DNA of 42,541 nt from a virus. Taxonomy: Duplodnaviria; Heunggongvirae; Uroviricota; Caudoviricetes. Every line of letters starts with the position of its first letter. Positions within the stretch are counted from its first letter, which is position 1. The position numbers and the translations under genes are program-made. The notes beneath the pieces were generated by a model. It ran no database searches, had not been told where the DNA came from, and saw only the letters and a program-made list of their open reading frames with translations. Shown piece after piece: positions 2,661 through 35,908 of this stretch. The DNA lies in IMG/VR virus record IMGVR_UViG_2529293215_000009. One strand, written 5' to 3'.

Positions 2661-2909
2661 ATGAGTAGAAGAGAAGTTTCAGATCACGATTGGCCGCCTG
2701 AAATCATCAAGGCGCGCTTACACATGGCTGGCTTATCACTGCGCTCTTTATCTTTAAAGGCTGGTTACAGCAGGGATTCGCTGAAAAGCGTATTACGTAC
2801 TCCTTGCCGACCGTATCAGCAAATAATTGCTGATGCTCTTGGGGTATCGCCTGAAGAAATCTGGCCCAGTAGATACCAGGTTAAGAGCTATATGAGAAAG
2901 GCGTCATGA
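2661..2909 (+). CDS. ner: Ner-like DNA-binding regulator (Nlp/Ner family)
   Basis: 82 aa; C-terminal QQIIADALGVSPEEIWPSRYQ closely matches Mu Ner EQIIANALETKPEVIWPSRYQ; position immediately upstream of transposase. Confidence 0.85.
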   Translation: MSRREVSDHDWPPEIIKARLHMAGLSLRSLSLKAGYSRDSLKSVLRTPCRPYQQIIADALGVSPEEIWPSRYQVKSYMRKAS

Positions 2910-2910
2910 T

Positions 2911-5001
2911 ATGTATGTCATTGCAAAAGAACTGATTGGCGCGCCCGGAATGCCTGCTACAACAAAAGGTATTCGCCAGGCATTACAACGTTACGTACAA
3001 GGGAAAAGCTGTTGTTCCCGTCGTCGCTCAGGCTCTAAAGCAACTGAATACAGCATCGACTGTTTACCTGAAGTGACGCAGCAGGCATTACGTGAACGTT
3101 ATGCCCTGCAACTGATGACGCAAAAAGCCGATGAATCACCGGCTCCGGTAGTGACAAAGGCCAGGCGCTCACCTGCCGTGGTTGATGCGGTGGAGGCATA
3201 TCGCGGATCACCACAACTGATGGTCGAACGCCTTAATGCCCTGACTGAAAACCAGCGCCAGGTGGCTGATGCACGAATCGCGATCGTCAGCGAAGTTCTG
3301 AAAGTCGCGCAACAACCTGGTTTCAGCTGTGCGAAGGCTATCCGGTTTATCGTTGACAACCTGGCACGTTCGCAGCTGGACGAGCGCATTGTGGCAATGG
3401 TTGAGACGGCGAACGCCAAAAAGGGAAACAGCCGCGCGTTAAGTGAAATCACGCTGAAACGCTGGATTGCGGCCTTTAACAAGGCGCAGAACGCCGCTGA
3501 ACGCCTGCTTTTACTGGCACCGGGTAAGCGCCAGGAAATAAAAGCCGAAGATATTAACTGGCTGCCCGAATTTCTGGCGCAGTATCGCCAGTCAAACGGC
3601 CGACCAATGACCGAGGCTTACGAGGATTTTGTCGCTGAATGGCAGCACCGGCACGCTGATGAGCCTTATATGCTCGATATCATGCCGTCTTATGACACCA
3701 TTCGCCGCGCAATGAAGAAACTGCCGGAAGTGGTGAAACAAAAAGGCCGGGTGACCGGCAGTGAATACCGCCAGCTTGAGGGATTCACGCGCCGCGACTG
3801 GTCAAAAATGCCGGTGAATTATGTCTGGATTGGTGACGGTCACGGCATGAAGCTGAAATGCGCACACCCGGTTCACGGTCGGCCATTTGCACCGGAAGTG
3901 ACCTTTGTTATCGACGGTGGCACGCGCTTTGTGGTGGGCTGGAGCCTTGACCTGGCTGAAAATGTTTTCGCCGTAGCCGGTGCCATACAGCACGGCATTC
4001 GCCATCACGGCAAACCGTTTCTGTATTACTCGGATAACGGCTCCGGGGAAACCGCCGACATCCTGGATAAGGAGGTTGTGGGGATACTGCCGCGACTGGG
4101 GATTAATCACCCGACCGGGATTGCCGGTAATCCGCAGGGACGAGGCATTATCGAACGGCTTAACCGCACATTACCGATGCGCATAGCCCGTAAATACCGC
4201 ACCTATTTCGGGAAAGGTGCAGATCGCGAGACGTTACGCAAAACCAACCGCGATTTACGCTCGGCATTTACTGCCCTGCAACAGGGCAAACGGCTGAACG
4301 CCCGGCAGCAGTCAGCGATGCGTGATTTACCGTCCTGGTCTGAACTGATTGATGCCATTCGTGATGGTGTTGAGTGGTACAACAACCGGCCGCACGATGA
4401 ATTACCGGTGAAGCCGAACGGCAAGCATTACAGCCCGGCGGAGTTCAGAAAAAAACGCCTGGCGGAAGAGGACACGGAAATTGAATGGCTGTCCGATGTG
4501 GAATTGCGGGACATGTTCCGGCCGATGGTGGAACGCCCTGTAAGACGCTGTGAAATACGCTGGCTGAATAATATTTACTACGCGCCCGAGCTGCGTGATG
4601 AGCATGGCCGCAAGGTGCTTATCAGCTATGACATTCATGATGCCGAACGAATTACCGTACGTCGCCTGGATGGCAGCGTGATTTGCGAGGCGGTATGGGA
4701 CGGTAATAAACGCGAAGCCTTCCCGGTTAGCGCGGAATACTACAAACAGCAGCAACGCCTTAAAGGCATGCGTAAACGCGCAGAGGAAAAAATCCGTGAT
4801 GCCGAGGATGAGGTTGTCAACGTGCTGGAGCACAAGCCGCAGGAGCCCTGGCTGGAAAACATCTATCGCCCGGTAGGTAATACGGTGGCCGTTCAGCAAC
4901 CTGCCGTTGATGATGAGCCTGATGAAGAATACGAGCGCAATTTCCAGCGGGGATTGCAGTTGCTCGAAGCGAAATTAAAAGAAAATGACCCGCTGGCCTG
5001 A
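2911..5001 (+). CDS. A: Mu-type DDE transposase A
   Basis: 696 aa after ner; DDE-like blocks NYVWIGDGHGMK, LYYSDNGSGE, GNPQGRGIIERLNRTL; size and position as MuA. Confidence 0.9.
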   Translation: MYVIAKELIGAPGMPATTKGIRQALQRYVQGKSCCSRRRSGSKATEYSIDCLPEVTQQALRERYALQLMTQKADESPAPVVTKARRSPAVVDAVEAYRGSPQLMVERLNALTENQRQVADARIAIVSEVLKVAQQPGFSCAKAIRFIVDNLARSQLDERIVAMVETANAKKGNSRALSEITLKRWIAAFNKAQNAAERLLLLAPGKRQEIKAEDINWLPEFLAQYRQSNGRPMTEAYEDFVAEWQHRHADEPYMLDIMPSYDTIRRAMKKLPEVVKQKGRVTGSEYRQLEGFTRRDWSKMPVNYVWIGDGHGMKLKCAHPVHGRPFAPEVTFVIDGGTRFVVGWSLDLAENVFAVAGAIQHGIRHHGKPFLYYSDNGSGETADILDKEVVGILPRLGINHPTGIAGNPQGRGIIERLNRTLPMRIARKYRTYFGKGADRETLRKTNRDLRSAFTALQQGKRLNARQQSAMRDLPSWSELIDAIRDGVEWYNNRPHDELPVKPNGKHYSPAEFRKKRLAEEDTEIEWLSDVELRDMFRPMVERPVRRCEIRWLNNIYYAPELRDEHGRKVLISYDIHDAERITVRRLDGSVICEAVWDGNKREAFPVSAEYYKQQQRLKGMRKRAEEKIRDAEDEVVNVLEHKPQEPWLENIYRPVGNTVAVQQPAVDDEPDEEYERNFQRGLQLLEAKLKENDPLA

Positions 5002-5071
5002 AATAAAAAATAACCCGAGCGGCGACTCAGGTTATTTGATTAAACAAGGTATCAAATGAGAGGTTAATAAT

Positions 5072-6004
5072 ATGACTGATATTAACGATGTAATCAAGAC
5101 CATTGATGAACTTATTGATGGCGGCGTACTGACGCAGTATGCCATCGCCAGAGAGGCGGGAATTTCCGACGGCACATTATCGGCTTTCCGCAAGGGGAAA
5201 TATAAAGGCGATAACGCCGCTGTGGCTGCTTCCCTGCGTTCCTGGTATGAGAACTGGAATAAACAAAGCGCACTGCCGGAACCGCCGCAGTTTGTGGAAA
5301 CGCAGACAGTTCAGGAGCTGCGCGCACTGTTTCAGGCGGTTCGCCTGATGGGCTGTATTAACGTCATTGTGGGCGTGCCGGGGGTAGGTAAAACGGCCAC
5401 CGCCCGTAATTACTGCCAGGAGCAACCAAACACCTGGATGATCACCCTGTCACCCGCGCACTCCAGCGTCACGGAGTGTCTGCTGGAGCTGGCCGATGCG
5501 CTGGGGATTGATTACACCCGCGCGAACAAAGGGGCATTATCCCGCGCCATCCGCCGTCGCCTGATGGGAACGCGTGGACTGGTGATTGTGGATGAGGCGG
5601 ATCATCTTGGTATTGACGGTCTGGAGCAACTCCGGGCAATTCAGGACGCCACGGGGATCGGGATGGTGCTTATTGGTAACCCGCGCGGATTGTTTAAAGG
5701 TGGACGCCGCGCCTTTGATGATTTATCGCGCCTGTTCAGCCGTCTTGCCCGTACAAAACAACTTCGCAAGGCCAAAAAGGCGGATGTGCTGGCCATTGCC
5801 AGGGCATGGGGTATCAGTGGTGAGGCCGAGCTGGCCGTCATGCAGGCTATCGCTGAAAAGCCGGGAGCGTTACGCGTTCTGACACATACGCTTAACCAGG
5901 CGTGGCTCACCGCCAGCGGTGAAGGTGCGGCGCTGACAGAAAAACATATTAATGCGGCCTTTAAAGAGGTTTATACCAACCCTGAATTACTCTCACAGGT
6001 GTGA
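5072..6004 (+). CDS. B: Mu B-like transposition ATPase (AAA+)
   Basis: 310 aa; Walker A GVPGVGKT, Walker B LVIVDEADHLG; immediately after A. Confidence 0.9.
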   Translation: MTDINDVIKTIDELIDGGVLTQYAIAREAGISDGTLSAFRKGKYKGDNAAVAASLRSWYENWNKQSALPEPPQFVETQTVQELRALFQAVRLMGCINVIVGVPGVGKTATARNYCQEQPNTWMITLSPAHSSVTECLLELADALGIDYTRANKGALSRAIRRRLMGTRGLVIVDEADHLGIDGLEQLRAIQDATGIGMVLIGNPRGLFKGGRRAFDDLSRLFSRLARTKQLRKAKKADVLAIARAWGISGEAELAVMQAIAEKPGALRVLTHTLNQAWLTASGEGAALTEKHINAAFKEVYTNPELLSQV

Positions 6005-6006
6005 TT

Positions 6007-6228
6007 ATGGCGGTATTTTATATTCCTGATATTTACGGACGCTTTTACCTGGTTAATTTCGATAACGTGAAGGTGATTTCACTGGCCGAAAATAAAGAAT
6101 GTGGCGATTTACTTTTTGAATTTAATGACCGCACACGAATGGTGATATCTGCCGGACTTGATCGCGAAGGTGCGACAGAAGTTTACAGCGGAATATGCCG
6201 TTCTGTTGGTGCGAAACAAGTCAGCTAA
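6007..6228 (+). CDS. hypothetical protein (accessory early region)
   Basis: ORF 6001..6228; ATG at 6007 just after B stop; no recognisable motif. Confidence 0.4.
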   Translation: MAVFYIPDIYGRFYLVNFDNVKVISLAENKECGDLLFEFNDRTRMVISAGLDREGATEVYSGICRSVGAKQVS

Positions 6229-6240
6229 ATGAGGTGTTAT

Positions 6241-6495
6241 ATGAATATGCAATCCTGCGGTAACAAAATGAATTTATTCGACTCCCTGAACAGCGCGCGC
6301 CGTCTGACCGAACTTGCCGGTGCGGTACTGGAACGCAGTAAGCGCTACCCACAACGTTTTGCACTGAAAACCACGCCGCCGGTAGGCAACGTGCAGGGAA
6401 CCGGTGAAATTGAAATCACCATACAGACCAACGGCCTGCGCCGCCGTGTGAAGGCCACCCGCATCAGCGGCTGCACGGTTTACTGGGAGGTGTGA
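6241..6495 (+). CDS. hypothetical protein (accessory early region)
   Basis: ORF 6229..6495; GAGGTG then ATG at 6241. Confidence 0.4.
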   Translation: MNMQSCGNKMNLFDSLNSARRLTELAGAVLERSKRYPQRFALKTTPPVGNVQGTGEIEITIQTNGLRRRVKATRISGCTVYWEV

Positions 6496-6496
6496 G

Positions 6497-6778
6497 GTGA
6501 AAAAAAATCTCATTGCATGGGCGTGGTCGAGTGGTCTTATTGAGTTTGGTTACGTCCTGCCGGAAGGTGCATTGCCGATAGTTGCCGGAAAGCCTGCCAC
6601 GGTACGGCATGTGATTGAGGTTATGGCGCGTCATGGACGTGATGAACAGGAGCAGTTACTGGTTCCGGGGATACCGGAAGCGGTGACGGAGGAAGAAGCC
6701 TTTAATGCCATGATTCGGTTCTGCCGTGAGGTCAGACGCCGGGTCAGTTATCCAAACAGAACGAGGACCAGAGGATGA
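6497..6778 (+). CDS. hypothetical protein (accessory early region)
   Basis: GTG start preceded by GGAGGTGTGAGG; 93 aa; tightly packed in operon. Confidence 0.4.
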   Translation: MKKNLIAWAWSSGLIEFGYVLPEGALPIVAGKPATVRHVIEVMARHGRDEQEQLLVPGIPEAVTEEEAFNAMIRFCREVRRRVSYPNRTRTRG

Positions 6779-7047
6779 GTAAAGTCGTACGCATTATTTT
6801 CGAATACAAGGAGCACGTTATCCATAAAAACGCTGATGGAACAGTGCGCATGGGGGTAAGTCTGGACATACGTTCAACCGGGATAAAGCAGAAAGGTGAT
6901 GGACCCGCCATGATTTTTGGGGTGGTTATGCTCGCGGAAAGCAGAGACTTTGCTGAACTTGTGGCAATGAAAGCCAGTGCGCTCATGAAAGATATGAGCA
7001 TGCGTTCCGGGGTTATTAAAGGTAATGAATTTAATCAGCAGGGGTAA
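6775..7047 (+). CDS. hypothetical protein, paralog 1 of a tandem pair
   Basis: N-terminus MSKVVRIIFEYKEHVIHKNADGTV parallels the next ORF. Confidence 0.45.
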   Translation: MSKVVRIIFEYKEHVIHKNADGTVRMGVSLDIRSTGIKQKGDGPAMIFGVVMLAESRDFAELVAMKASALMKDMSMRSGVIKGNEFNQQG

Positions 7048-7051
7048 TTCC

Positions 7052-7345
7052 ATGAGCAAAGTACGCGTTATTTTTGAATTTAAGCATGTTTCGCATGACG
7101 AAAAACCGGCAGGCAATGACTGTGTTGAAGTGCATGAAAAGATTGGTGTGGATGTAAAAACAGAACGTGATACGAATAACAGGCCGACGTCACTCTGTGA
7201 CGTTTATGCAAGTATTCTCCAGTATCACAGCCCTGAAATTATTCAGTTTCTCTCAGCGGAATTTCAGGCATCTGTACAGGCTTTTGGGGCGGATGCCATC
7301 ATTAAACGCCACCGCGTGCATAAAGCATCAGGCACACTGCAATAA
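7052..7345 (+). CDS. hypothetical protein, paralog 2 of a tandem pair
   Basis: ORF 7025..7345, ATG at 7052; N-terminus MSKVRVIFEFKHVSHDEKPAGNDCV parallels the previous ORF. Confidence 0.45.
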   Translation: MSKVRVIFEFKHVSHDEKPAGNDCVEVHEKIGVDVKTERDTNNRPTSLCDVYASILQYHSPEIIQFLSAEFQASVQAFGADAIIKRHRVHKASGTLQ

Positions 7346-7356
7346 GGAAAAACAAA

Positions 7357-7887
7357 ATGGCAAAACGCGTTACAAAATTAAAGGCCGCAGCAGAGGCGGC
7401 ACCGCAGACCCGTGAAGAGGTCAGCCGCGATATCCGCACCCTGGGCGATATTCAGCGAGAGGCGCTGCGCCTGGAAACAGCGATGAATGATGAAGTGGCA
7501 GAAATCACCGCCCGTTATACGCCGCAGATTGAAAACCTTAAAAAAGAAATCAAAGTGCTTTTTAAGGGGATTCAGGACTGGTGCAAAACCAACCGTGATG
7601 AGCTGACGAACGGCGGCAAAACCAAAACTGCCAATCTGACCACCGGAACGGTGTCATGGCGACTGGGGAATCCATCATGCAGCGTCAGTCGTGATGTGGA
7701 AGGTGTGATTGAAATGCTGCGCCGTATGGGCCTTGAGCGTTTTATCCGCACGAAAGAGGAAGTGAACAAGGAAGCGGTCCTGGCGGAGCCGGATGCGGTG
7801 AAAGGGATTGCCGGTATTAAGGTGAATAAAGGCGCTGAAAGTTTTTATGTCGAGCCTTTTGAACAGGACGCCGGACTGAATAAATAA
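7357..7887 (+). CDS. gam: host-nuclease inhibitor Gam (Ku-like DNA end-binding)
   Basis: 176 aa; RLETAMNDEVAEIT, NRDELTNGGKTKTANLTTGTVSWR, LERFIRTKEEVNKEA closely match Mu Gam. Confidence 0.9.
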   Translation: MAKRVTKLKAAAEAAPQTREEVSRDIRTLGDIQREALRLETAMNDEVAEITARYTPQIENLKKEIKVLFKGIQDWCKTNRDELTNGGKTKTANLTTGTVSWRLGNPSCSVSRDVEGVIEMLRRMGLERFIRTKEEVNKEAVLAEPDAVKGIAGIKVNKGAESFYVEPFEQDAGLNK

Positions 7888-7984
7888 CACCGCATTAATC
7901 AATTAAATATCACTTCGTTTTAATTATGGCGCTCGCGTCAGGGGACTGCCTGCGCCTGTAAACTGAAAATAAGGAACAGGATAT

Positions 7985-8527
7985 ATGGCATATTTTTATT
8001 TCAAATTAGACCGTGTGCAGACAAATAAATATTTCACCAAATATCAACAGACTGTTTTACCGCTACGCAACAGTATTCTTCGGGCATTACTGAAAAATAC
8101 AGGCGCTGCCGGATTGCGCTTAAAGCCGTTTGCCATGGACGTAATCAGTGAGTTTTATTTTTCTGGTGCTCTGCCTGCGGGCTGGCGTAAGCGCGATGAT
8201 GTGGCTTTTATCGGGGACGGACCGTGCTTTATTGCCAGACCTGATGAGTCATGCCCTGAAGGTCCGGCGATTGCCGCAATGATTGAAACCGCTGAACGTG
8301 AGTTAAGAAAGCGTCCTGATTTCCTTGTCTGGCTCTGTGAAAAGCTGGGGGTAATGAGAATCCCCTCCATGTTTAACACGGACTCCTGGTGGACCCCGTC
8401 GCTCTCCCGTGATGCCCTGTGCGTGGTGTTTAAAGTAGGCGCTTATGGCAGGGAAATAAAAGGGTGTATTCCTGAAGAATGCCAGGAAATTAAACATTCT
8501 GAATATGTGGCGCTGACGGAGGAATAA
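7985..8527 (+). CDS. hypothetical protein (accessory early region)
   Basis: 180 aa ORF with ATG start; no recognisable motif. Confidence 0.4.
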   Translation: MAYFYFKLDRVQTNKYFTKYQQTVLPLRNSILRALLKNTGAAGLRLKPFAMDVISEFYFSGALPAGWRKRDDVAFIGDGPCFIARPDESCPEGPAIAAMIETAERELRKRPDFLVWLCEKLGVMRIPSMFNTDSWWTPSLSRDALCVVFKVGAYGREIKGCIPEECQEIKHSEYVALTEE

Positions 8528-8530
8528 TTC

Positions 8531-9064
8531 ATGATTGATGCAAAAGTGCTTGAAGGGGTTAAAAACTGGCTGAGTATTTACGGGCGTCTGACCTGCGGCA
8601 TTCTGGCTGAAAAAATGAATATGCCGCCATCCTCGATGGTTTATTTTCTGCGTGATGCGGTCGATGCCGGGGTGCTGACGGAATGTAACGGTTTTTATGA
8701 TATTCCGCGTCCCCGCCCGGTGCAGCCGGTTCGTCGCAAATGCAGCCAGGAAGGTGCGGCTGATGATGTTCAGTGGTGCAGCTTCAGAAAGTCCCTGCCG
8801 TGGATTGAGGGGCATGATATTCCGTCGATGGCGTGGGAATTTGCTCAGGGCGTACTGACCTGCGAAACCGTTTATGTGGTGGCTGAAGTTGATGAGCAGG
8901 CCATGAAAGAAGGCGTGCCCCAGTTTGTGATGGCGTATATCGACATTCGCCTGGGTGTCATTATCTGCGGTTTAAGCGGCTGGAATATCACCGAACATGT
9001 TCTGCGTTACCTGATTGTTGACCGGACGGCTGCGCCTGCCGGGATATCTGCGGAGGTGGCGTAA
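8531..9064 (+). CDS. hypothetical protein, possible N-terminal winged helix
   Basis: 177 aa; N-terminal VKNWLSIYGRLTCGILAEKMNMPPSSMVYFLRDAVDAGVL resembles wHTH. Confidence 0.4.
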   Translation: MIDAKVLEGVKNWLSIYGRLTCGILAEKMNMPPSSMVYFLRDAVDAGVLTECNGFYDIPRPRPVQPVRRKCSQEGAADDVQWCSFRKSLPWIEGHDIPSMAWEFAQGVLTCETVYVVAEVDEQAMKEGVPQFVMAYIDIRLGVIICGLSGWNITEHVLRYLIVDRTAAPAGISAEVA

Positions 9065-9579
9065 TGTTCTTTAAAACATCAAACCCTTCCGCGCTGGCTG
9101 CGTGGCAAAAATACCAGCAGGACTACAAGAAAGTTAAGGATGAGGCAAAACGTCTTGAGGCCGTGCTGAATGTTGATTGTCGGTCGGTATTTGTATCCGG
9201 TATCAATGGTTTTTATTTTAAAGGACTGCGTTTTACGGATAACAAATATCCTTTTCATCGCGACTTATGGCGAAAACCGACTGCGTCGAATGGCTGGAGC
9301 TGCACGCCGCGCACATCGTGTATTCCCAAAGCCCTGTGCGCTGCCTCTGACGAACTTAACAGTCTGTGGCGTGAATATTCGCCCGTCACGTATGCCAGAA
9401 CCGATGCCCTGTTGTTCTGGCTGGGTATTGATTTCTCGGCAATCCTGTTTGGCCCTGTGGAGTGGTTCTGCGTTGACGATGTGATTTACCTTCAGTGCGG
9501 CGTAAAACCCGCAAAACAGAAAATGACCGAAATTCTGTCTGATGAGTTTTATGCTGCTGAAAAGCGAGTCAGGGGGTGA
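9064..9579 (+). CDS. hypothetical protein (accessory early region)
   Basis: 171 aa; start overlaps upstream stop (TAATG). Confidence 0.4.
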   Translation: MFFKTSNPSALAAWQKYQQDYKKVKDEAKRLEAVLNVDCRSVFVSGINGFYFKGLRFTDNKYPFHRDLWRKPTASNGWSCTPRTSCIPKALCAASDELNSLWREYSPVTYARTDALLFWLGIDFSAILFGPVEWFCVDDVIYLQCGVKPAKQKMTEILSDEFYAAEKRVRG

Positions 9580-9582
9580 TGT

Positions 9583-10134
9583 ATGATGATTTTACAACCC
9601 ATGGGGCGAAAAGGCCGTGCACCCGCTCATGTCCGTGCGTGGACACCTGAAGAAGATGCACTGCTGATTGCGCTTTATCCATCCACCCCGGTTAAGGATA
9701 TTGCTGTCAGGGTAAAAAGAAGTTTCTGGGGTGTACATAACCGGATTGTTTTATTACGCGGTACTTACCCGGAGTTGCTCAAATGCAAACGTCCAAGATT
9801 TAAACATGATGAAGATAAATTTATCCGAAAAAATGCCAGAACGATGACCGGTAAGCAAATAGGAGAATATCTGGGGCGAGACCGGGATTCTGTCCACAAA
9901 CGGGCGCGATATATTGGCGTAAGCATGAAAAAATACGGAGAGTTGCTGCCCTTCACCCGTATACCTGATGATGATGTTCATCTTATTCGTGAATTACGGG
10001 ATGCTGAATCACCACGACGTCTTACCTTCCGGGAAATAGGCGAGAAATTTGAATTATCCGAGAGTACGGTGAATTTTATTTATCACCATCGCCGGACTGC
10101 CGAAGATGTTGTATTACGGGAGTTAATGCCATGA
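9583..10134 (+). CDS. hypothetical protein with three HTH-like repeats
   Basis: Three internally repeated segments (WTPEEDALLIALYPSTPVKDIAVRV, DEDKFIRKNARTMTGKQIGEYLG, DDDVHLIRELRDAESPRRLTFREIGEKF). Confidence 0.45.
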   Translation: MMILQPMGRKGRAPAHVRAWTPEEDALLIALYPSTPVKDIAVRVKRSFWGVHNRIVLLRGTYPELLKCKRPRFKHDEDKFIRKNARTMTGKQIGEYLGRDRDSVHKRARYIGVSMKKYGELLPFTRIPDDDVHLIRELRDAESPRRLTFREIGEKFELSESTVNFIYHHRRTAEDVVLRELMP

Positions 10135-10442
10135 TAACGACATTATTTGTTGAATCAGACGAGCCTCTGGTATGTGCCGCCGGAATGTCGGTTTGTGGCG
10201 GAACGCTGACCGGTGTTTATTTCGGGGATTTGCGCGGTTATCCCTGGCATTCACTGGATGACGCATTTCCGCCTGATATGGAGGCTGTCGTGCTGATTGT
10301 TCAGTATGGTGACCAACAGGAACTGCGCATCGGCCATATGGGGTATGAAGGCTTTTTTATTGATGAAGAAACCGGAGCCTGCCTTGAAGATGAGGACGGA
10401 CAGGTGACGCACTGGTGCCATATTTCAGCTTTACCGGAATGA
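10131..10442 (+). CDS. hypothetical protein (accessory early region)
   Basis: 103 aa; start overlaps upstream stop (ATGA). Confidence 0.4.
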   Translation: MITTLFVESDEPLVCAAGMSVCGGTLTGVYFGDLRGYPWHSLDDAFPPDMEAVVLIVQYGDQQELRIGHMGYEGFFIDEETGACLEDEDGQVTHWCHISALPE

Positions 10443-10456
10443 CGGGAGGTGAATGC

Positions 10457-10807
10457 GTGAGAAGTTATATTGATAATGAAAAACTGAAGACAATCAGCGA
10501 CTGTCTTAGCTTGCTGGCAAAAATAAAAGAAACCATTGAAGAGATTAAATTTCAGCTTGAATACGAACCCTGTGGCGATGATACATGGCGTAACTCTGCC
10601 AGAAAAGCACTGGCTGTCTTTCAGAAACAACGCCGGACTGTTGAATACCGCCTTGCTGTATTGCGCCAGGAGGAAAAGGAAAGAAATATAAGACGTCATG
10701 AACTCGTTAATGATTTTCTTGTTCGTGAATTAAAGGAGCGTGTGCCGGAGTCGGTATTTTTTGAGTGTGAGGCTGTTGCCCGTAGCAAAGCACTGGAAAC
10801 TGATTAA
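10457..10807 (+). CDS. hypothetical protein (start uncertain)
   Basis: ORF 10415..10807; GTG at 10457 preceded by GGGAGGTGA; coiled-coil-like composition. Confidence 0.35.
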   Translation: MRSYIDNEKLKTISDCLSLLAKIKETIEEIKFQLEYEPCGDDTWRNSARKALAVFQKQRRTVEYRLAVLRQEEKERNIRRHELVNDFLVRELKERVPESVFFECEAVARSKALETD

Positions 10808-10819
10808 ACAGGCAGGTGA

Positions 10820-11155
10820 ATGATGAGTATTGAATTAAGATCGTCTTATGAATATCGTAAAATTCTCATCGCCGGAGGCATGAAACCGGAAGATGCAGAA
10901 AAAATCGTTTCTTTTATGGATAAAGAATGTGACAAACGGGATATGCCAGAAATTATTATGGATGACATGATTCTGCATTCAGCCGTAGCGTTAAGCCCGT
11001 TATGGATTGTGCATTCTCTTGCTGAAATTGCCAAAGGCACCGATAAACAGGCAGCTGTTGCTGCCCTTCAGACGCTTAATGAAATGCGTATATCTCCACG
11101 CCCGACATTAATACATATGATTCTGTCCAGCATGGAGGATAAAGCAAATGAATAG
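10820..11155 (+). CDS. hypothetical protein (accessory early region)
   Basis: 111 aa ORF. Confidence 0.4.
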   Translation: MMSIELRSSYEYRKILIAGGMKPEDAEKIVSFMDKECDKRDMPEIIMDDMILHSAVALSPLWIVHSLAEIAKGTDKQAAVAALQTLNEMRISPRPTLIHMILSSMEDKANE

Positions 11156-11345
11156 TCTACCCGCTGGATGGGCGCGGCCACTAATGGCCAGGAAGCATCA
11201 TTTTTTTAAAACAGGCGAAAATATCAGTATATGTGGACGGTGGTTATATCTGGCTCATAATCGCGAGCCGGATACATTTGAAAGCCCTGATGACTGTGCC
11301 GAATGCCGCAGAAGAGTGAATAAGGAGAAAGATAATGGACAATAG
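11148..11345 (+). CDS. hypothetical small protein, possible Cys-rich metal-binding
   Basis: 65 aa; Cys at ICGRW and DDCAECRRR. Confidence 0.35.
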   Translation: MNSLPAGWARPLMARKHHFFKTGENISICGRWLYLAHNREPDTFESPDDCAECRRRVNKEKDNGQ

Positions 11346-11631
11346 TTCTCTGTTGTTCTGGTGCTTATATATCACATCCTTTTTCGGCGCATTTGTTATT
11401 ACCCGGTGGTTATGTCGAAAAATCATCTGCTTTTTTGATAAAAGACATCCGGTTGAACGGGCGGCTGATGCGCTCATTCAGCAGGCCATTGTGTTATATA
11501 GCGGTGAATTTTTCTGCCGGATAACAACCAGAGATGGCTGGCACATAATGATTATTCCACCAACACACCATGCCCGGTGGGATGAGGCAGAAAAGGCTTT
11601 CCATGTCCGTAAAAAGGTAAATACGGTATGA
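11335..11631 (+). CDS. hypothetical small membrane protein
   Basis: 98 aa; hydrophobic N-terminus LLFWCLYITSFFGAFVITRWL. Confidence 0.35.
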   Translation: MDNSSLLFWCLYITSFFGAFVITRWLCRKIICFFDKRHPVERAADALIQQAIVLYSGEFFCRITTRDGWHIMIIPPTHHARWDEAEKAFHVRKKVNTV

Positions 11632-12137
11632 GAGGAAAACTGATATCCGCCATTCATGTGGCAAAGCGCGAGCTTGCCCTGGATGATGAGACTTATACAT
11701 CCGCGCTGCTGGCAGCCACCGGCAAAACCAGCTGCCGGGATATGTCACCGGATGAGTTATCCCGCGTGCTGGATGTTTTCAAAAAACGCGGTTTTAAAGT
11801 GCGTCAGAACCCGGTTAACCGGGCCTTAAAACCGGGTACGGTGACCGCCAAAATTCGCGCCATCTGGAAGGTGATGCACCGGCAGGGCTTTATCACCGAT
11901 GGTGCGGAAACCGCCCTTAACCGCTGGGTGAAATCGCAGACGGCCGCGCAGAACGGCGGCGAAGGTGTGGCAAACTGGCAGTGGCTGGAGCAACACCCCG
12001 CCCTGGCCTCAGATGTGCTGGAGCGTCTCAAGCGATGGCACCGCCGCAAAATGCTGGCCGCGATGGGAATGCCCGAACGCACGCTGATGGGGTATGACGC
12101 CGTTTGCAGGCAGTATGAAAAATCACTTCCCCGTTAA
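11628..12137 (+). CDS. gemA: GemA-like protein (Mu gp16 family)
   Basis: N-terminus LISAIHVAKRELALDDETYTSALLAATGKTS...FKKRGFKV matches the conserved gp16/GemA pattern; sits just before mor as in Mu. Confidence 0.75.
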   Translation: MRGKLISAIHVAKRELALDDETYTSALLAATGKTSCRDMSPDELSRVLDVFKKRGFKVRQNPVNRALKPGTVTAKIRAIWKVMHRQGFITDGAETALNRWVKSQTAAQNGGEGVANWQWLEQHPALASDVLERLKRWHRRKMLAAMGMPERTLMGYDAVCRQYEKSLPR

Positions 12138-12142
12138 CCCCA

Positions 12143-12172
12143 AATCCCGCCACAACGCGGGATTTTTATTTT
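12143..12172 (+). terminator. intrinsic terminator at end of early operon
   Basis: AAATCCCGC cacaac GCGGGATTT hairpin followed by TTTTATTTT, right after gemA stop. Confidence 0.65.
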
Positions 12173-12206
12173 AAACTTACCGGGAACGCGAGAACCGGAG
12201 GCTGAT

Positions 12207-12632
12207 ATGGCAGAAACTCAGATGAGCATGTTTGGTGGTGACAGTGAGCAACTGCACGCCCTTATCGACCGCCTTGATGACATCCCTGATGATGTTCTCA
12301 AAAAGAACTGGCCGCGGACCCTGTCAGAACTGGTTGAAGTCACCGGCGCAGAACTTCAGCGTCAGGGGATTGAGCCGGTACTGGCCGGTAAACTGGCACG
12401 CAAGGTGGCTGCGGCTCAGGCAGCCTATATGGGCGGACGGGGTTATTACCTGCCGGTCGGGGAATCTCTCTTTGCCGAGCTGCGAAACAATGAGATATTT
12501 TCGCGCTGGGACCGGGGCGAGAAAATTGAATCCCTTCGCCGCCATTACCGGATGTCAGAAACCCAGATTTATACCGTCATACGTGAACAGCGCCGTCTGC
12601 ATCTGGCAAGAACGCAACCGCCACTTTTCTGA
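12207..12632 (+). CDS. mor: Mor/C-family transcriptional activator
   Basis: 141 aa; LRNNEIFSRWDRGEKIESLRRHYRMSETQIYTVIREQRR parallels Mu Mor IRDLRIWNDFNGRNVSELTTRYGVTFNTVYKAIRRMRR. Confidence 0.8.
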   Translation: MAETQMSMFGGDSEQLHALIDRLDDIPDDVLKKNWPRTLSELVEVTGAELQRQGIEPVLAGKLARKVAAAQAAYMGGRGYYLPVGESLFAELRNNEIFSRWDRGEKIESLRRHYRMSETQIYTVIREQRRLHLARTQPPLF

Positions 12633-12703
12633 TATTCCGCAAAGCCTGCCGCCTTTCCTTCACCGTTACGCTGACTCAGAGAACATCATGAGACAGCGTA
12701 ACA

Positions 12704-13204
12704 ATGCCAAAACTCCCCGCACCACTGCGTAAAAAGCTGATTGCCCTTGTTCTGGCCGGTGCCGGGACGTTCACGATTGCCACGCATTACACCGGTTACT
12801 GGGAAGGGAAAGAAAACTCCACGTATATCGATCCCACCGGTACACCCACCATCTGTTACGGCCATACCGGCCCGGATGTGAAACCGGGTATGACCCTGAC
12901 GGATGAAGAATGCCTGGAACTACTGGAAAAGGACATGAAATGGGCCTTTGCGGCCATTGATCGGCGTGTTCAGGTGCCGCTTACCCGTGGTCAGACTGTG
13001 GCGCTGGCTTCGTGGATCTTCTGGGCCGGTGAAACGAACTTCCGCAACTCCACGCTTCTGCGCCTGATCAATGCCGGGCAGATGCCCGCGTCCTGTAAGC
13101 AGTATATCCGCTGGATTTATTCAAAGGGGGTGAAACTCCCCGGCCTTGAGGCCCGCCGTTCGGCGGATGAATGGTTATGTCGCTACGACTTGCCGAAAGT
13201 CTGA
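12704..13204 (+). CDS. lys: endolysin (lysozyme-like) with N-terminal signal-anchor (SAR type)
   Basis: Hydrophobic N-terminus KLIALVLAGAGTFTIATHY then E-x8-D-x5-T lysozyme catalytic spacing in EGKENSTYIDPTGTPTICYGHT. Confidence 0.8.
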   Translation: MPKLPAPLRKKLIALVLAGAGTFTIATHYTGYWEGKENSTYIDPTGTPTICYGHTGPDVKPGMTLTDEECLELLEKDMKWAFAAIDRRVQVPLTRGQTVALASWIFWAGETNFRNSTLLRLINAGQMPASCKQYIRWIYSKGVKLPGLEARRSADEWLCRYDLPKV

Positions 13205-13316
13205 ACCGCTTCTGGCGACCGCTCATGATAGCGCTGCTGTGTGCGGTACTGCTGTTACGGGGTGTCCTGTGGCTGCGGTGAATAATGCCTTACCGGCCCT
13301 GATTGCCGGGGCGTGC

Positions 13317-13667
13317 ATGGCGGCGCTGGGGATTATCGCTGTACTGGTTGCCGCGATATGGGGAATGCACCAGAAGACGCAGCGCCTTGAAGACAATAAT
13401 CAGGTGCTTGTGCGTGAGCGGGATGAGGCGCGTCAGGTGCTGGCAAATCAGCAGCACACCCTGCAACTCATTTCACAAATCAGTGAGGCGGCCACGAATG
13501 AAAAACAACAGAACATTCAGCACAGCGAGGGGCAGCAGAGCGTTGTCCGCCGGTCGCTGGCAGCAGTGCCTGCGGCCTCTGCCCCTGTTCCTGATGATGT
13601 GGCTGATCGGGTGCGCCGGGCCGTCTGTGAAATACGTGCCTGTGAAGCCGGTGCCGATCCCCGCTGA
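13317..13667 (+). CDS. i-spanin (Rz-like)
   Basis: N-terminal TM MAALGIIAVLVAAIW followed by coiled-coil-like QRLEDNNQVLVRERDEARQVL; directly after endolysin; start chosen at first ATG after lys. Confidence 0.55.
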   Translation: MAALGIIAVLVAAIWGMHQKTQRLEDNNQVLVRERDEARQVLANQQHTLQLISQISEAATNEKQQNIQHSEGQQSVVRRSLAAVPAASAPVPDDVADRVRRAVCEIRACEAGADPR

Positions 13668-13869
13668 ATGGCTGGCTGACTGCCTGGTCCCTCCTGCGCC
13701 GGAGCCGTTCACGTTTGGGGCATCGGTCACTTACAACCTGCAACTGCTGGCGGTGATCAAGAACTGCAACGTGGACAAGGCCAGTATTCGTCGTCTGGAG
13801 ACGCGGCGACAACATGAATTTACTGATATGGCCGGAACGCCTGCTGTTCCGGCAGGAAAAACGAAGTAA
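13498..13869 (+). CDS. o-spanin candidate (Rz1-like lipoprotein), overlapping i-spanin in another frame
   Basis: Alternate-frame ORF with lipobox-like LIGC and proline-rich mature region (VKYVPVKPVPIPAEW...PPAPEP); start uncertain. Confidence 0.45.
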   Translation: MKNNRTFSTARGSRALSAGRWQQCLRPLPLFLMMWLIGCAGPSVKYVPVKPVPIPAEWLADCLVPPAPEPFTFGASVTYNLQLLAVIKNCNVDKASIRRLETRRQHEFTDMAGTPAVPAGKTK

Positions 13870-13878
13870 GGAAAAGGT

Positions 13879-14106
13879 ATGGATGATTCAGATCGTGCTC
13901 AGGCTGTGATGGAGCGGGGATCAGAACGCGCCCTTTGTAACCGGCTGACACGTAAGCGCCAGGCAGTGGATACGCCGGGCAGACGTGTCTGCGCGGACTG
14001 TGGCGGAGAGATCCCCGCCGCACGTCTTGTTGCTGTGCCTGATGCCATCCGTTGTGTGAACTGCCAGAACATCATGGAGGCCCGTAATGTGGGTCAGCAT
14101 CGTTAA
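13879..14106 (+). CDS. TraR/DksA-family C4 zinc-finger protein
   Basis: 75 aa with CADCGGEIPAARL...IRCVNCQ four-Cys arrangement typical of TraR/DksA. Confidence 0.6.
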   Translation: MDDSDRAQAVMERGSERALCNRLTRKRQAVDTPGRRVCADCGGEIPAARLVAVPDAIRCVNCQNIMEARNVGQHR

Positions 14107-14395
14107 AGATTATGTTGTGCCGATCCTTTCGGCGACGGCAACCGCTGGCGGGATATTCATGGCGCTGATGCGCAAAACGTTTGTCCCCCGCGAGGCCTTT
14201 GAAAAACTCTCCGACCGCGTTGAGAAGGTGGAAACCCGCCTGTCGTCACTGCCGACAGAAGCCGAGGTCAACCGTCTGAATGTGGAAATCGTGACCCTGC
14301 GGGGTGAACTGAAAACCACGAACGCCACGCTCCGCTCTGTCTCCTATCAGAACGAACTGCTGCTGGAGCAGGCTGTAAGGAAAAAAACGCAATGA
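14087..14395 (+). CDS. small membrane protein (positional equivalent of Mu gp25)
   Basis: 102 aa; N-terminal TM VVPILSATATAGGIFMALM then coiled-coil; lies between lysis genes and terminase genes. Confidence 0.4.
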   Translation: MWVSIVKDYVVPILSATATAGGIFMALMRKTFVPREAFEKLSDRVEKVETRLSSLPTEAEVNRLNVEIVTLRGELKTTNATLRSVSYQNELLLEQAVRKKTQ

Positions 14396-14682
14396 GTGAT
14401 TTCATTACTGAAGATCAGCGTCTGGTCATTCTGCGGTCGCTGGCAGATTACAACGGTGAACTGGGTGAATCCGTGCTCCAGGACTGTCTGGATGATTACG
14501 GCCACCGCGTGTCCCGCGACACCGTTCACACCCACATTGCCTGGCTTGCCGAGCAGGGACTGGTGCGCAAACGCGTTCTGATTAACGGTTATTTCATCGC
14601 AGAGCTGACCGGCCGGGGGCAGGATGTGGCGGAAGGCCGGGCCTGCGTTCCGGGTGTGAAGAAACCACGCGCAAGGGGGTAA
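14392..14682 (+). CDS. hypothetical protein (Mu gp26 position)
   Basis: 96 aa ORF translationally coupled to neighbours, just upstream of small-terminase-like gene. Confidence 0.45.
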   Translation: MSDFITEDQRLVILRSLADYNGELGESVLQDCLDDYGHRVSRDTVHTHIAWLAEQGLVRKRVLINGYFIAELTGRGQDVAEGRACVPGVKKPRARG

Positions 14683-16930: not shown

Positions 16931-18519
16931 TGGGACGCATAATTGATCTTGACGGAAAACCTTTCTCCTTTGACCCGGAGATGCAGAGTGCCGCGCTGGA
17001 TATTCCGCAGATTGCCAGCCGTTATATTGAACATCCGGCCTCGGGTATCACCCCGAACCGGGCGGCACAGTGCCTTCGCGGGGCTGAACGTGGCGATCTG
17101 ATTGCCCAGTCCGATCTTGCCGCTGACATTGAAGAAAAGGATACCCACCTTTTTGCTGAGCTGGGCAAGCGACGCCTTGCCATTCAGGGGGTGCCCTGGA
17201 GTATTGAGCCGCCACCGAACGCCAGCGCGAATGAGAAAAAGGACGCGGAAATGCTCGACGAATATCTGCATTCCGCCGACTGGTTTGATGCCATGCTGTT
17301 TGATGCCACCGATGCCATCCTGAAAGGCTATTCCTGCATGGAGATTGAGCACGGGATGCTCGGTAAAATGCACATCATCCGCGCCATCCGCTGGCGTGAC
17401 AGCGGGCATTTCTGCCTTAACCCGGATGATTTGAGCGAACTGCGGCTGCGTGACGGCAGCCATGCCGGGGTGGCGTTTCAGCCCTTTGGCTGGATAGTGC
17501 ATCAGTCACGTTCACGCACCGGTTACGGCGGCGCAACGGGGCTTGTCAGGACGCTTATCTGGCCGTTCATTTTCAAAAACTATTCCGTGCGCGATCTGGC
17601 TGAATTTCTGGAGGTGTACGGCCTGCCGATGAAGGTCGGTAAATACCCGTCCGGGGCAACGCCGGAGCAGAAAAGCGCCCTGATGCGGGCGGTGATGGAT
17701 ATCGGGCGACGTACAGGCGGGATCATCCCGGCCGGGATGTCGCTGGAGTTTCAGGCGGCAGCGAACGGTCAGGCCGATCCGTTTGAAACCATGATTTCGT
17801 GGGGGGAGCGTTCCATCTCCAAAGCTATCCTCGGCGGCACGCTGACCACGGAAGCCGGAGACAAGGGCGCGCGCTCGCTGGGTGAAGTGCATAACGAGGT
17901 GCGCCGGGAAATCAGGGATTCTGATTTACGTCAGCTGGCCGCCACGCTGAACCGCGATCTGGTGTATCCGCTGTATGCCCTGAACACCGCCCACGCCATA
18001 GATATCCGTCGCCTGCCGCGTATCTGTTTCCAGACAAAAGAGCCGGGGGATATCACCAAAATCACCAGTGCGGTGATGCAGCTCAGTACGGGGATGGATA
18101 TTTCTGATCCCTGGATACGTGAGCAGACGGGTATTCCGCAGCCCACGCCCGGCGAAGCCATCTTCCGTGTCCGTCAGAGTGGCAATGAACCTGCTCAGAC
18201 AGACAAAGAGATGCCACCGGAAAAACAGGAGAAGACAGAGCAGACGGCGCTGGCTGCCAGACTGCCGGAAGCGAAGAGCAGCCCCCGAGATGAACTGGAC
18301 GACATGGGGGATGCGGTGCCTGCCCGTCGGTTACAGGAGGCCATCGACCCGGTACTGGAGCCGGTCATTGATGCCATCAGAACGCGGGGGCTGGCGGAGG
18401 CACTGGCAGACCTGCCTGCCCTTTACCGTGAAATGGATGATTCCCGCCTGATGACGCTGCTCAGTGATGCCATGTTTGCTGCGGAAATGAAGGGGATGCT
18501 GGATGGCACAAGGGATTGA
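16921..18519 (+). CDS. portal protein (Mu gp29-like)
   Basis: 532 aa directly after large terminase and before F-like gene; GTG start at 16921 uncertain. Confidence 0.75.
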   Translation: MLVVGRIIDLDGKPFSFDPEMQSAALDIPQIASRYIEHPASGITPNRAAQCLRGAERGDLIAQSDLAADIEEKDTHLFAELGKRRLAIQGVPWSIEPPPNASANEKKDAEMLDEYLHSADWFDAMLFDATDAILKGYSCMEIEHGMLGKMHIIRAIRWRDSGHFCLNPDDLSELRLRDGSHAGVAFQPFGWIVHQSRSRTGYGGATGLVRTLIWPFIFKNYSVRDLAEFLEVYGLPMKVGKYPSGATPEQKSALMRAVMDIGRRTGGIIPAGMSLEFQAAANGQADPFETMISWGERSISKAILGGTLTTEAGDKGARSLGEVHNEVRREIRDSDLRQLAATLNRDLVYPLYALNTAHAIDIRRLPRICFQTKEPGDITKITSAVMQLSTGMDISDPWIREQTGIPQPTPGEAIFRVRQSGNEPAQTDKEMPPEKQEKTEQTALAARLPEAKSSPRDELDDMGDAVPARRLQEAIDPVLEPVIDAIRTRGLAEALADLPALYREMDDSRLMTLLSDAMFAAEMKGMLDGTRD

Positions 18520-19834
18520 TTTAGGTTATGCCGCCACACTTGCCTCAAAAGAGGCGGTGGCATACTTCCGCGCCAAAGGGGCGCATATCAGCTGGAACTG
18601 GTTCGAAACAGACGCGGATGTTCATGCCCGTTCATTCACGGCGGCAAAAGTGGCACGCCTGGACGTACTGACCACACTACAGGCGGAAGTGCAGCGTGCT
18701 GTTGATGAGGGGATTTCACAGAAAGCATTTATTCGCACGCTGACACCCCGCCTGCAAAAGCTGGGATGGTGGGGAAAACAGATTGTGGTGGACAGTGCCG
18801 GTAACGCGGAAGAAGTGCAGCTGGGCAGTCCCCGCCGTCTGGCGCTGATTTACAACGTGAACACCCGTGTGGCTTACAATGCCGGGCGTTACACGCAGAT
18901 GATGAACAACACGGACACGCATCCGTTCTGGCAGTATGTGGCGGTGATGGACAGCCGCACCCGCCCGGCACATTCCGCCCTTAACGGGCTGGTATTCCGC
19001 TATGACGATCCGTTCTGGAATACACACTACCCGCCCAATGGCTGGAACTGTCGCTGCCGTGTCCGGCCATTGTCTCAGGCCCGTCTGGATGCGATGGGGC
19101 TGTCTGTTTCATCCGGTCAGGATCATCTCTCCACCCGCAATGTTGAGGCTGGCGTGGATAAGCAGACCGGAGAAGTCAGAGAAATGCCGGTGACCACATA
19201 TTCAGATGGCACCAGAACCATGACACCGGATGTGGGCTGGTCATATAACCCCGGCTCGGCGGCGTTCGGCACAGACCAGGCGTTGATCCGTAAACTGATC
19301 GAGGTGAAAAGCCCGGCGCTGCGGGAAATGGTAGTGCAGGAGATGAACAACAGCCCGGAGCGGCAGCTGGCGTTCCGCATCTGGGCAAAAAACATCATGA
19401 AAACCCGGCGAGGCGGTAACGATATCCGCACGCTGGGCTTTATGACCGAAAGCATTGCGCAGGCGGTGGAAAGCCGGACGGGAACGCCACCGGCCCGCCT
19501 GCTGGCGATGAGCGGTAAAAATGTGCTCCATGCGGACAGCATGAAACATCAGAATGACGGTATCGCCCTGACGCCGGAGGATTTCGGTCGATTACCGGCA
19601 ATGCTGGCAAAGCCAAAAGCGGTGCTGTGGGACAAACGCCACAACAATCTGATGTATATCGTGGAAAGTAAGGATAGCAGTGTGCAGATTGCCGTTAATG
19701 CGCCGTACAGCCTGAAGCGTCAGCCGGATAAACTGGATGTGATTGTGAATGCTTACCGGGTTATCAATATGGATAAGCTGAAATCGGATATCCGGGGTGG
19801 AATGCTTGAGGTACTGGAAGGAGATATTGATTAA
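18503..19834 (+). CDS. head morphogenesis protein (Mu F-like)
   Basis: 443 aa following portal with overlapping start. Confidence 0.75.
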   Translation: MAQGIDLGYAATLASKEAVAYFRAKGAHISWNWFETDADVHARSFTAAKVARLDVLTTLQAEVQRAVDEGISQKAFIRTLTPRLQKLGWWGKQIVVDSAGNAEEVQLGSPRRLALIYNVNTRVAYNAGRYTQMMNNTDTHPFWQYVAVMDSRTRPAHSALNGLVFRYDDPFWNTHYPPNGWNCRCRVRPLSQARLDAMGLSVSSGQDHLSTRNVEAGVDKQTGEVREMPVTTYSDGTRTMTPDVGWSYNPGSAAFGTDQALIRKLIEVKSPALREMVVQEMNNSPERQLAFRIWAKNIMKTRRGGNDIRTLGFMTESIAQAVESRTGTPPARLLAMSGKNVLHADSMKHQNDGIALTPEDFGRLPAMLAKPKAVLWDKRHNNLMYIVESKDSSVQIAVNAPYSLKRQPDKLDVIVNAYRVINMDKLKSDIRGGMLEVLEGDID

Positions 19835-19955
19835 CGGTCAGTGGCGGGGGTTGAACCCGCATACATGATCCACCCGGAGGCAGGCACCGACTTTACCAGT
19901 TAAGCGTACACTGACCGCCTGTTTATTTTATATTCATCCTTTATGCGGAGGCAAT

Positions 19956-20429
19956 ATGTCATCCATTGATGCCGCTGTCGTTGTTGACGTTACGCGTCTC
20001 CAGCGGGTCTTTGCCCGGCTTCAGTTTGTGGGTGGAGGGAAAGACCTGGCCCGCAGTGTGGCGGCGAGTCTTCTGTCATCGTCAGAAATGGCGTTTGAAC
20101 AGGAAAAAGAGCCGGACGGCGAACGCTGGCATGACTGGTCAGATCCTTACCGCAAGTGGCGTACCCGTAAGGGATACATGCCCGGCAAAATCCTGACGCT
20201 GAACGGCGATCTGGCCCGACGCCTGACCACGGATTATGGCGATACCTGGGCGCTGATTGGATCAAATGAGCCTTATGCGGCCATTCATCAGTGGGGTGGC
20301 CTGCCTGGTATGCCACCGGGACCGGCGGCCATTGGCGCACGCCCGTATATGGGCTTTGATCAGGTGGCAGAGCAGGAGATCATGGACGAAATCAGAAAAC
20401 GCTTTAAAAAGGCCACAGAAACGCCTTAA
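19956..20429 (+). CDS. virion morphogenesis protein (Mu G-like)
   Basis: 157 aa; conserved position between F and protease I. Confidence 0.65.
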   Translation: MSSIDAAVVVDVTRLQRVFARLQFVGGGKDLARSVAASLLSSSEMAFEQEKEPDGERWHDWSDPYRKWRTRKGYMPGKILTLNGDLARRLTTDYGDTWALIGSNEPYAAIHQWGGLPGMPPGPAAIGARPYMGFDQVAEQEIMDEIRKRFKKATETP

Positions 20430-20605
20430 TTGTTTAAGGTATGCAAATGCATTACCTTACCCCCTTCAGGCGCGTGTCGTGATTTTCTAACCTGTATTTA
20501 ACGGGCTTTAAAATCTGCGTGAAGCGCCTTTGTATTTTTCCCCTGGAAGCACTTCCTGAAATCCCGCAAAACCCGCCCTGAAAATTCCCGGCTTATGCTG
20601 CCGGA

Positions 20606-35896: not shown

Positions 35897-35908
35897 GGTT
35901 TCAGGGAT
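35883..35908. promoter_or_regulatory. gix-like recombination site (right), adjacent to gin
   Basis: ATCCCGTAAACC GA GGTTTCAGGGAT, half-sites 10/12 palindromic; central GA complements the TC of the left site. Confidence 0.7.

Follow-up and report, generated by a model that had tools for sequence, protein, structure and literature searches.

Bacteriophage Mu, the best-studied transposable phage, carries genes for two paralogous transcription activators, mor and then C, ahead of the endolysin gene lys, an order that a preliminary description of the DNA analysed here had given and that the Mu record bears out. In this DNA (the window; 42,541 nucleotides, IMG/VR record IMGVR_UViG_2529293215_000009), the contiguous order is gemA, a hairpin, one Mor/C-family gene and lys. 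The locus raises the question of how a Mu-like phage with one activator, placed behind what looks like a terminator, moves from early to late transcription. The preliminary description had offered two answers: that one protein drives both middle and late promoters, or that a second activator lies elsewhere in the element. Every component that we describe is of a known kind, and the discovery is modest to that extent. The prophage nevertheless shows how Mu, with two serial paralogues, differs from its common relatives, which have one activator, and it offers a testable system in which the delay between early and late expression is obtained without a middle tier and the activator can be studied at two defined late promoters, those of lys and gene I.

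The window contains a complete Mu-like Escherichia coli prophage, with ends at approximately 1690 and 40908, bordered on each side by the 5-bp repeat ACGCC. Because the whole element lies within the window, every one of its genes was open to a search for paralogues. The early operon extends from ner to gemA (approximately 2661–12137). Its last gene, gemA (11628–12137, + strand), matches Pfam GemA (PF06252, E = 3.2e-30) and is named 'gp16 family protein' by PGAP in NZ_AP018796. The endolysin gene lys (12704–13204, + strand) matches Phage_lysozyme (6.3e-37), and gene I (20606–21730, + strand), which encodes the head protease/scaffold and opens a second late unit, matches Mu-like_Pro (1.5e-76; PGAP, 'phage protease').

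The activator gene (12207–12632, + strand) is preceded by a Shine–Dalgarno sequence, GGAGG, at 12197–12201, which is conserved in the common 84% allele. Its 141-residue product matches Pfam Mor (PF08765) over profile positions 2–107 of 107 (E = 2.8e-32, 111.3 bits against a cut-off of 24.9). It belongs to the same protein family as Mu Mor (gp17; PDB 1rr7) and lies nearer to Mu C (gp21; PDB 9l0x and 9vw8): identity with C is 39% over the full length (8e-35, 105 bits), compared with 27% for Mor (6e-14, 51.6 bits), and the closest solved structures are those of C (both 1e-26), followed by Mor (2e-9). The length is also close to the 140 residues of C. Members of the family are small proteins of approximately 100–150 residues, acidic in the N-terminal half and basic in the C-terminal half, which bears the helix-turn-helix (HTH), and have invariant residues at G70, G71, Y75, P77 and G79 in C numbering (PMC2582627). 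The present protein carries a net charge of -4 in residues 1–70 and +4 in residues 71–141, and keeps the invariant linker residues as G76, G77, Y81, P83 and G85, the GG..Y.P.G pattern that it has in common with C. Activity of Mu C requires two clamp-binding motifs, an N-terminal Qx[D/E][L/M]F and a C-terminal QPDLF (PMC12867686). Similar motifs are found at both termini here, each as a near-match: residues 5–9 are QMSMF, with S at the position expected to be D/E (the general clamp consensus QL[SD]LF permits S), and residues 137–141 are QPPLF, with P in place of the expected D. As judged by these sequence comparisons, the activator is an orthologue of the Mu late activator C and not a Mor/C hybrid.

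To look for a second member, the prophage was searched in two ways. In a Pfam scan of 150 open reading frames (ORFs) of at least 72 residues on both strands, Mor was a single-member family. A family hidden Markov model (HMM) was also built from 146 members: 143 diverse relatives obtained by an exhaustive profile search, together with Mu Mor, Mu C and the protein encoded in the window. With filtering disabled throughout, it was run on all segments of 25 residues or more between stop codons in the six frames. It returned the segment at 12138–12629 with E = 1.7e-49, and the runner-up had E = 1. On the Mu genome, used as a positive control, the same model recovered both Mor (2.5e-34) and C (1.2e-48). 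Neither the ORF scan nor the six-frame search found a second Mor/C homologue anywhere in the prophage, so the observation of one such gene before the endolysin stands and the suggested second activator elsewhere in the element falls away. The PGAP annotation likewise speaks for a single activator. A tblastn match of Mu Mor at 6109–6222 (E = 0.011) was set aside as noise, the 75-residue ORF there having neither a Pfam nor a family-HMM match. Counts of tblastn places per phage record were likewise discarded as a measure of paralogues, because Mor lies near the E-value limit.

The Mor-dependent middle operon of Mu (gp18–20, C) ends with C, whereas here the activator gene follows gemA and the terminator. 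The prophage contains no counterpart of Mor or of the middle-operon genes gp18–20. With these genes missing and the activator C-like, the proposal that one protein drives both middle and late promoters is not supported: the programme is probably a two-tier one of the Mu type, and there is no middle tier for the activator to drive.

The preliminary description had treated the single activator as an oddity, a view that the relatives do not support. We examined 50 related loci, drawn from PGAP-annotated E. coli chromosomes, IMG/VR prophages, an Edwardsiella genome and others, with activators 44–100% identical to that of the window; viral contigs yielded 39 related loci, and genome contigs yielded one, with a narrow alignment. 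Each of the 50 contained exactly one family match within the up to 10 kb searched on either side, and in all of them it is one C-like activator. Published work lists a single 'Mor' for Haemophilus phage SuMu and for the Pseudomonas PaMx73 group, and in published surveys 'the late regulator Mor/C' counts as a single core marker for transposable phages. In SuMu, the PaMx73 group, B3-type phages and Pasteurella phage Pmp9, as here and in the 50 related loci, one Mor/C gene lies beside gemA and before the lysis and head genes. The one-activator layout is ordinary for Mu-like phages, and Mu, with two, is the exception among the phages examined here.

What the single activator would act on is indicated by two sites that resemble the C-dependent promoters of Mu. 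According to the Mu record, its four C-dependent promoters share ATAAyCCC, with AAyCCC beginning 26 nt before the -10 hexamer. In the prophage, a 22-bp box upstream of lys, CTGATATTCCGCAAAGCCTGCC (12629–12650, + strand; core AAAGCC at 12641), is followed 26 nt past the start of its core by a -10 hexamer, TACGCT (12667–12672). Thus, as in Mu, lys directly follows the activator gene, and a -35-less promoter, Plys, separates the two; the stretch from the -10 to the start, TAcgCTGaCTCAGAGAA, resembles that of Mu Plys, TAgaCTGcCaTCAGAGAA. A second box, CTGAAATCCCGCAAAACCCGCC (20556–20577, + strand; core AAAACC at 20568), precedes gene I and is followed by the -10 hexamer TATGCT (20594–20599), with the ATG of gene I 6 nt later; relatives have CACACT-N6-ATG at this place. 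The boxes of Plys and PI agree at 18 of 22 positions and are the only matches of 18 or more in the window, the next best being 17/22 on the opposite strand and 16/22 on the + strand. Their shared form, CTGAwATyCCGCAAArCC, differs from the TTAT-N5-6-ATAA(y)CCC of Mu. The 26-nt spacing from core to -10 is constant across Plys, PI, the four C promoters of Mu and the Plys and PI of five diverged relatives. Those relatives, with activators 44–60% identical, carry (G)TAA(A/T)CCC 26 nt ahead of a -10 hexamer that reads TAnnCT at Plys and CACACT at PI, and their late promoters have a common upstream half, ACTGAnAnACCG. By homology and conservation at the sequence level, Plys and PI are bona fide C-type promoters. 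Activators of the family bind a dyad or bipartite site that overlaps the -35 region of promoters without a -35 hexamer and activate sigma-70 RNA polymerase; the two boxes are candidate sites of this kind.

The search for shared activator-site motifs that the preliminary description had suggested took in gene P and com as well as lys and I. Box comparison and regular-expression searches across the window found no further box upstream of P, the tail genes or com/mom, so that a shared box was found for lys and I and not for the other two. The prophage thus has two identified late boxes compared with four in Mu, and a promoter model with two late promoters only may be incomplete. One regular-expression match, at 35886, is presumably the Gin recombination site and not a promoter. 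A position weight matrix combining box and -10, built from Mu and the relatives, was tried for promoters of P and mom and abandoned: its random maximum was approximately 13 bits, and the true promoters of the window score 10–13. The 9-mer AWATYCCGC occurs 15 times in the window compared with 1.85 expected from dinucleotide shuffles, which do not preserve codon usage. Of these copies, only those of Plys and PI have a correctly spaced -10; the others, which lie in coding sequence or terminators, probably reflect codon usage.

We then consider how the activator itself would be expressed. GemA stops 69 nt before the activator ATG, and this gap holds a hairpin that begins 4 nt past the gemA stop (12142–12165, + strand), identified by terminator scan and folding and consisting of a left arm, AAATCCCGC, a 6-nt loop, CACAAC, and a right arm, GCGGGATTT. 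The preliminary description had placed a 9-bp GC stem and a U-tract between gemA and the Mor-like gene. The hairpin, the U-tract and the length of the stem agree with that account, whereas the stem is not all GC, having five G-C and four A-U pairs. The terminator was also called strong there; its folding energy is about that of the hairpin that ends early transcription in Mu. TTATTTT follows directly 3' of the hairpin, giving a T-tract, TTTTTATTTT (12163–12172), of which the first three T form the end of the right arm. The predicted fold is one 9-bp stem with an energy of -13.5 kcal/mol (z = -4.13); shuffled sequences averaged -4.95 (s.d. 2.07), and none of 200 folded as well. A GC-rich stem-loop with a U-tract, in an intergenic position where a transcription unit ends, is what characterizes an intrinsic terminator, and the hairpin shows these features. 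It is the first canonical terminator-like site on the + strand after the early promoter region, and the terminator scan found no other comparable + strand site from that region to gemA. As far as sequence can tell, the hairpin looks like a genuine Rho-independent terminator closing the early operon, in agreement with the earlier reading. No Rfam family matched the window at gathering thresholds, nor the region 11900–12900 at E up to 1.

A hairpin of similar build and energy, AAAGCCGG-TTAAT-CCGGCTTT with a T-run (-14 kcal/mol), is annotated as a terminator in Mu, where it adjoins the first activator gene. For the Mu terminator and promoter we used the annotation of AF083977; the terminator name 't9.2' is presumably the one in use, and a literature search for that name gave no match. 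In the Mu annotation the hairpin lies after mor, inside the middle promoter Pm, whereas that of the prophage lies before the sole activator gene. The hairpin described here is the positional counterpart of the Mu hairpin after mor.

Hairpins are also found at the gemA–activator junction in lineages with activators 44–60% identical, with differing loops. The element is retained in six diverged lineages, and five diverged lineages with unalignable flanks share the same arms. By contrast, in the distant single-activator relatives L055–L057 the activator gene overlaps the preceding early gene, and neither they nor Pmp9, which lacks the hairpin, have an interposed terminator. The terminator before the sole activator is a trait of the enterobacterial clade. 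In the distant relatives the activator gene just closes the early set, a layout consistent with an ancestral state in which early transcription supplied the activator.

The hairpin could instead be a mere boundary at which gene modules are swapped, with the activator fully co-transcribed with the early genes. Such a boundary would account for the extra genes found exactly at the gemA–activator junction in several relatives (L006, L007–9, L010–12, L033 and L034), for the duplication of the hairpin on either side of the inserted genes in L006 and L010, and for the distant relatives entirely without it. However, a GC stem followed by a tract with T at nine of ten positions on the transcribed strand is expected to stop some transcripts, and the element has been kept in the six diverged lineages. 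We consider full co-transcription across a passive boundary the least credible of the readings weighed here, and very improbable.

The hairpin and the activator ATG are 41 nt apart, and no -35/-10 pair for sigma-70 was found in this interval; the first activator would therefore most likely come from early transcripts that continue past the hairpin. Our preferred reading, which we regard as reasonably probable, is that the hairpin works as an attenuator and that a C-like activator then fires the late promoters of lys and I. Early transcription would stop at an ordinary terminator (12142–12165), and a fraction of transcripts, on the assumption that termination is partial, would pass the hairpin and give the first activator. 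The attenuator would keep the activator low and late, and would alone supply the delay that the Mor-to-C relay gives Mu. A weak -35-less promoter with its -10 just past the T-tract may add to this supply; the candidate is TAAACT (12172–12177, + strand), which adjoins the T-tract and has similar sequences at the same place in relatives. The activator would then bind the bipartite box whose core begins 26 nt upstream of the -10 and switch on -35-less late promoters, with at least two targets, upstream of lys and of I. A near-complete stop at the hairpin would exclude read-through as the source.

Some features of the relatives sit less easily with an attenuator. At the position of TAAACT, relatives have TATAAT (L047, L050) or TATACT (L045, L049), and the sequence farther downstream is not conserved. 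A good -10 past the T-tract is thus kept in four diverged lineages amid unalignable flanks, where selection seems to be for something other than termination; termination alone does not account for this conserved proximal -10. The T-tract is poor in L043 and L009 despite retention of the hairpin, and where genes have been inserted in L006, L010 and L034, a copy of the hairpin remains beside the activator gene.

A different possibility is positive autoregulation, in which the activator, once a trickle of read-through has produced it, would attach to the DNA of the hairpin and raise its own synthesis from a -35-less promoter at TAAACT that overlaps the terminator. The geometry has some appeal: AAATCCC in the left arm would lie about where the ATAAyCCC half-site of Mu C sits, and the arrangement would parallel that of Mu Pm, which provides a precedent in that the annotated Mu terminator lies inside a Mor-dependent promoter. 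The left arm is identical to a 9-mer in the PI box, and a loose pattern, yAAwCC followed by N19-21 and a -10, matches only three + strand sites in the window: Plys, PI and the hairpin. The distance from AATCCC in the left arm to TATAAT or TATACT is 27–28 nt in relatives, compared with 26 in the late promoters, and there is again no -35. Furthermore, E. coli alleles do not vary from the hairpin through TAAACTT and diverge on both flanks, and it is this block that remains with the activator gene where extra genes follow gemA.

Against autoregulation, the hairpin is of a generic type. At least 116 IMG/VR viral contigs carry the pattern AAATCCCGC-N4-8-GCGGGATTT; among the matches listed, only 17 have a Mor/C gene and approximately 99 (about 85%) have none, and a second copy in the window, at 38665, is a minus-strand terminator. 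This wide occurrence in contigs without Mor/C marks it as a generic terminator and not a dedicated operator. When a box matrix was derived from the late promoters of the other genomes, hairpin sites scored -4.7 to +4.7, compared with 10–24 for the true late promoters of L043, L045, L049 and L050. The left half of the late box is absent at the hairpin and the AATCCC half alone is present; in the window its distance to TAAACT is 29 nt (24 to TATTTT) instead of 26. Moreover, the left arm has been lost in L033 and changed without compensation in L036 and L038. Given how common the arms are in unrelated phage contigs, and given the missing left half of the box, their role as a specific operator of the activator was largely rejected.

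The comparison with Pm points the same way. In Mu, the Mor-binding dyad is the terminator hairpin itself, centred at -43.5 (PMC4287176), whereas in the prophage the hairpin centre, at 12153.5, lies 18.5 nt before TAAACT, the one plausible -10, which puts it near -30. We also tried and rejected a geometry like that of Mor, in which a -10 would lie 31.5 nt past the hairpin centre: hand counting gave TGTAAT there in the common 84% allele, AACGCG in the allele of the window and inconsistent sequences in other lineages. Autoregulation at the hairpin is, on balance, unlikely. The same holds to the same degree for the broader scheme that builds on it, in which one protein would serve as a timer replacing the Mor-to-C relay throughout the clade, by way of a trickle, self-amplification at the terminator-overlapping promoter and then the late promoters. 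What keeps such a timer in consideration is the AAATCCC half-site, together with the conserved -10; the generic hairpin and the missing left half of the box keep it from being favoured.

The conserved -10 without a -35 would require some activator, and a non-homologous early DNA-binding protein could act as Mor does at the hairpin promoter, so that three tiers are kept. The candidate is a protein of 183 residues encoded at 9583–10134, which has weak HTH matches, among them AsnC-type (9e-5), sigma-70 region 4 (8e-4) and Myb-like, and whose homologues PGAP names 'SANT/Myb-like DNA-binding' or 'AsnC family'. However, every Pfam match of this ORF falls under the curated cut-off, no motif ties the protein to the hairpin, and among the annotations of the more distant relatives that retain the hairpin and the -10, no corresponding gene was noticed. 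A substitute for Mor is, in our estimate, highly improbable, though marginally less so than the passive boundary, and read-through past an attenuator continues to be the preferred source of the activator.

The region 11000–14500 of the window is 99% identical to stretches annotated as 'inserted Bacteriophage Mu-like phage' in two records of Stx-converting phages, and the region 10800–13300 is present in 231 of 5,426 complete E. coli genomes. Shiga-toxin strains are among the carriers, and there the prophage lies inside Stx phages. In strain E2855 (NZ_AP018796), its insertion splits a DUF1367 gene of a lambdoid prophage.

The ATG of gene I (20606–21730) lies only 6 nt 3′ of the −10 element of its C-type late promoter, in the arrangement TATGCT-GCCGGA-ATG (window 20594–20608), and relatives have an equivalent layout at gene I, CACACT-N6-ATG. 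This short spacing, kept in relatives, predicts that the late mRNA of gene I is leaderless or nearly so. In most relatives, the N-terminal alignment of the gene I protein starts at residue 1. In Mu, the corresponding leader differs, being ~26 nt long and containing a ribosome-binding site.

A tRNA-like structured element occupies the minus strand at 19836–19916, between F (18503–19834) and G (19956–20429). It is annotated by PGAP as ‘tRNA-OTHER’ in NZ_AP018796, the E. coli E2855 genome, and neither ARAGORN nor Rfam returned a match for it. Among the related Mu-like loci fetched for comparison, the element is kept at the same junction in L033, L045 and L047 (Edwardsiella), as well as in Pasteurella phage Pmp9; L043, L049 and L050 are without it. 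The alignment fold (four sequences) contains a 9-bp acceptor-like stem, in which seven pairs show changes on both sides, and a T-arm, GCGGG-TTCAACC-CCCGC.

The junction between gemA and the activator gene (window equivalent, 12138–12206) is a hot spot at which extra genes are inserted, as observed in L006, L007–L012, L033 and L034. The inserts of L010–L012 encode, for example, a secreted-looking protein of 140 amino acids. In L006 and L010, the terminator hairpin is present in duplicate, flanking the insert on either side. A weak σ70-like match, ATAACA-17-CATAAT, is located ~80 nt 5′ of gemA (11521–11549); overall, σ70-like matches of this kind are no more numerous than expected by chance. The Mu record (AF083977) annotates a ‘semi-early promoter’ before gemA, at roughly the same place.

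Towards the right end, the sequence at 35880–35905 (CCCGTAAACCGAGGTTTCAGGG), which resembles the Gin recombination site, adjoins a resolvase/invertase-type gene (35963–36523; Pfam Resolvase, 1.4e-51, among the ORFs). Together, the Gin-like site and its adjoining gene suggest that, like Mu, this prophage carries an invertible tail-fibre segment. A 679-amino-acid ORF (36623–38662), with the invertase gene on one side and the com/mom-like region on the other, occupies a position at which Mu has no gene. Directly beyond it, a hairpin (38665–38700) reads as a terminator of the minus-strand genes at 38898–39775. A com-like ORF and a Mom-family gene follow at about 39880–40781. GATC sites are clustered 5′ of these genes (39820–39860), with CGATCG occurring twice within about 20 nt, an arrangement similar to that of the region of Mu Pmom controlled by Dam and OxyR. 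A C-type box, the activator-type site of late promoters, was not recognized at 39820–39860.

The Mu-like prophage is itself inserted in a second prophage, a lambdoid element of the Stx type represented by the flanks (1–1689 and 40914–42541). The insertion divides a DUF1367 gene in two, with a 5-bp duplication, ACGCC, on either side of it at 1685–1689 and 40909–40913.
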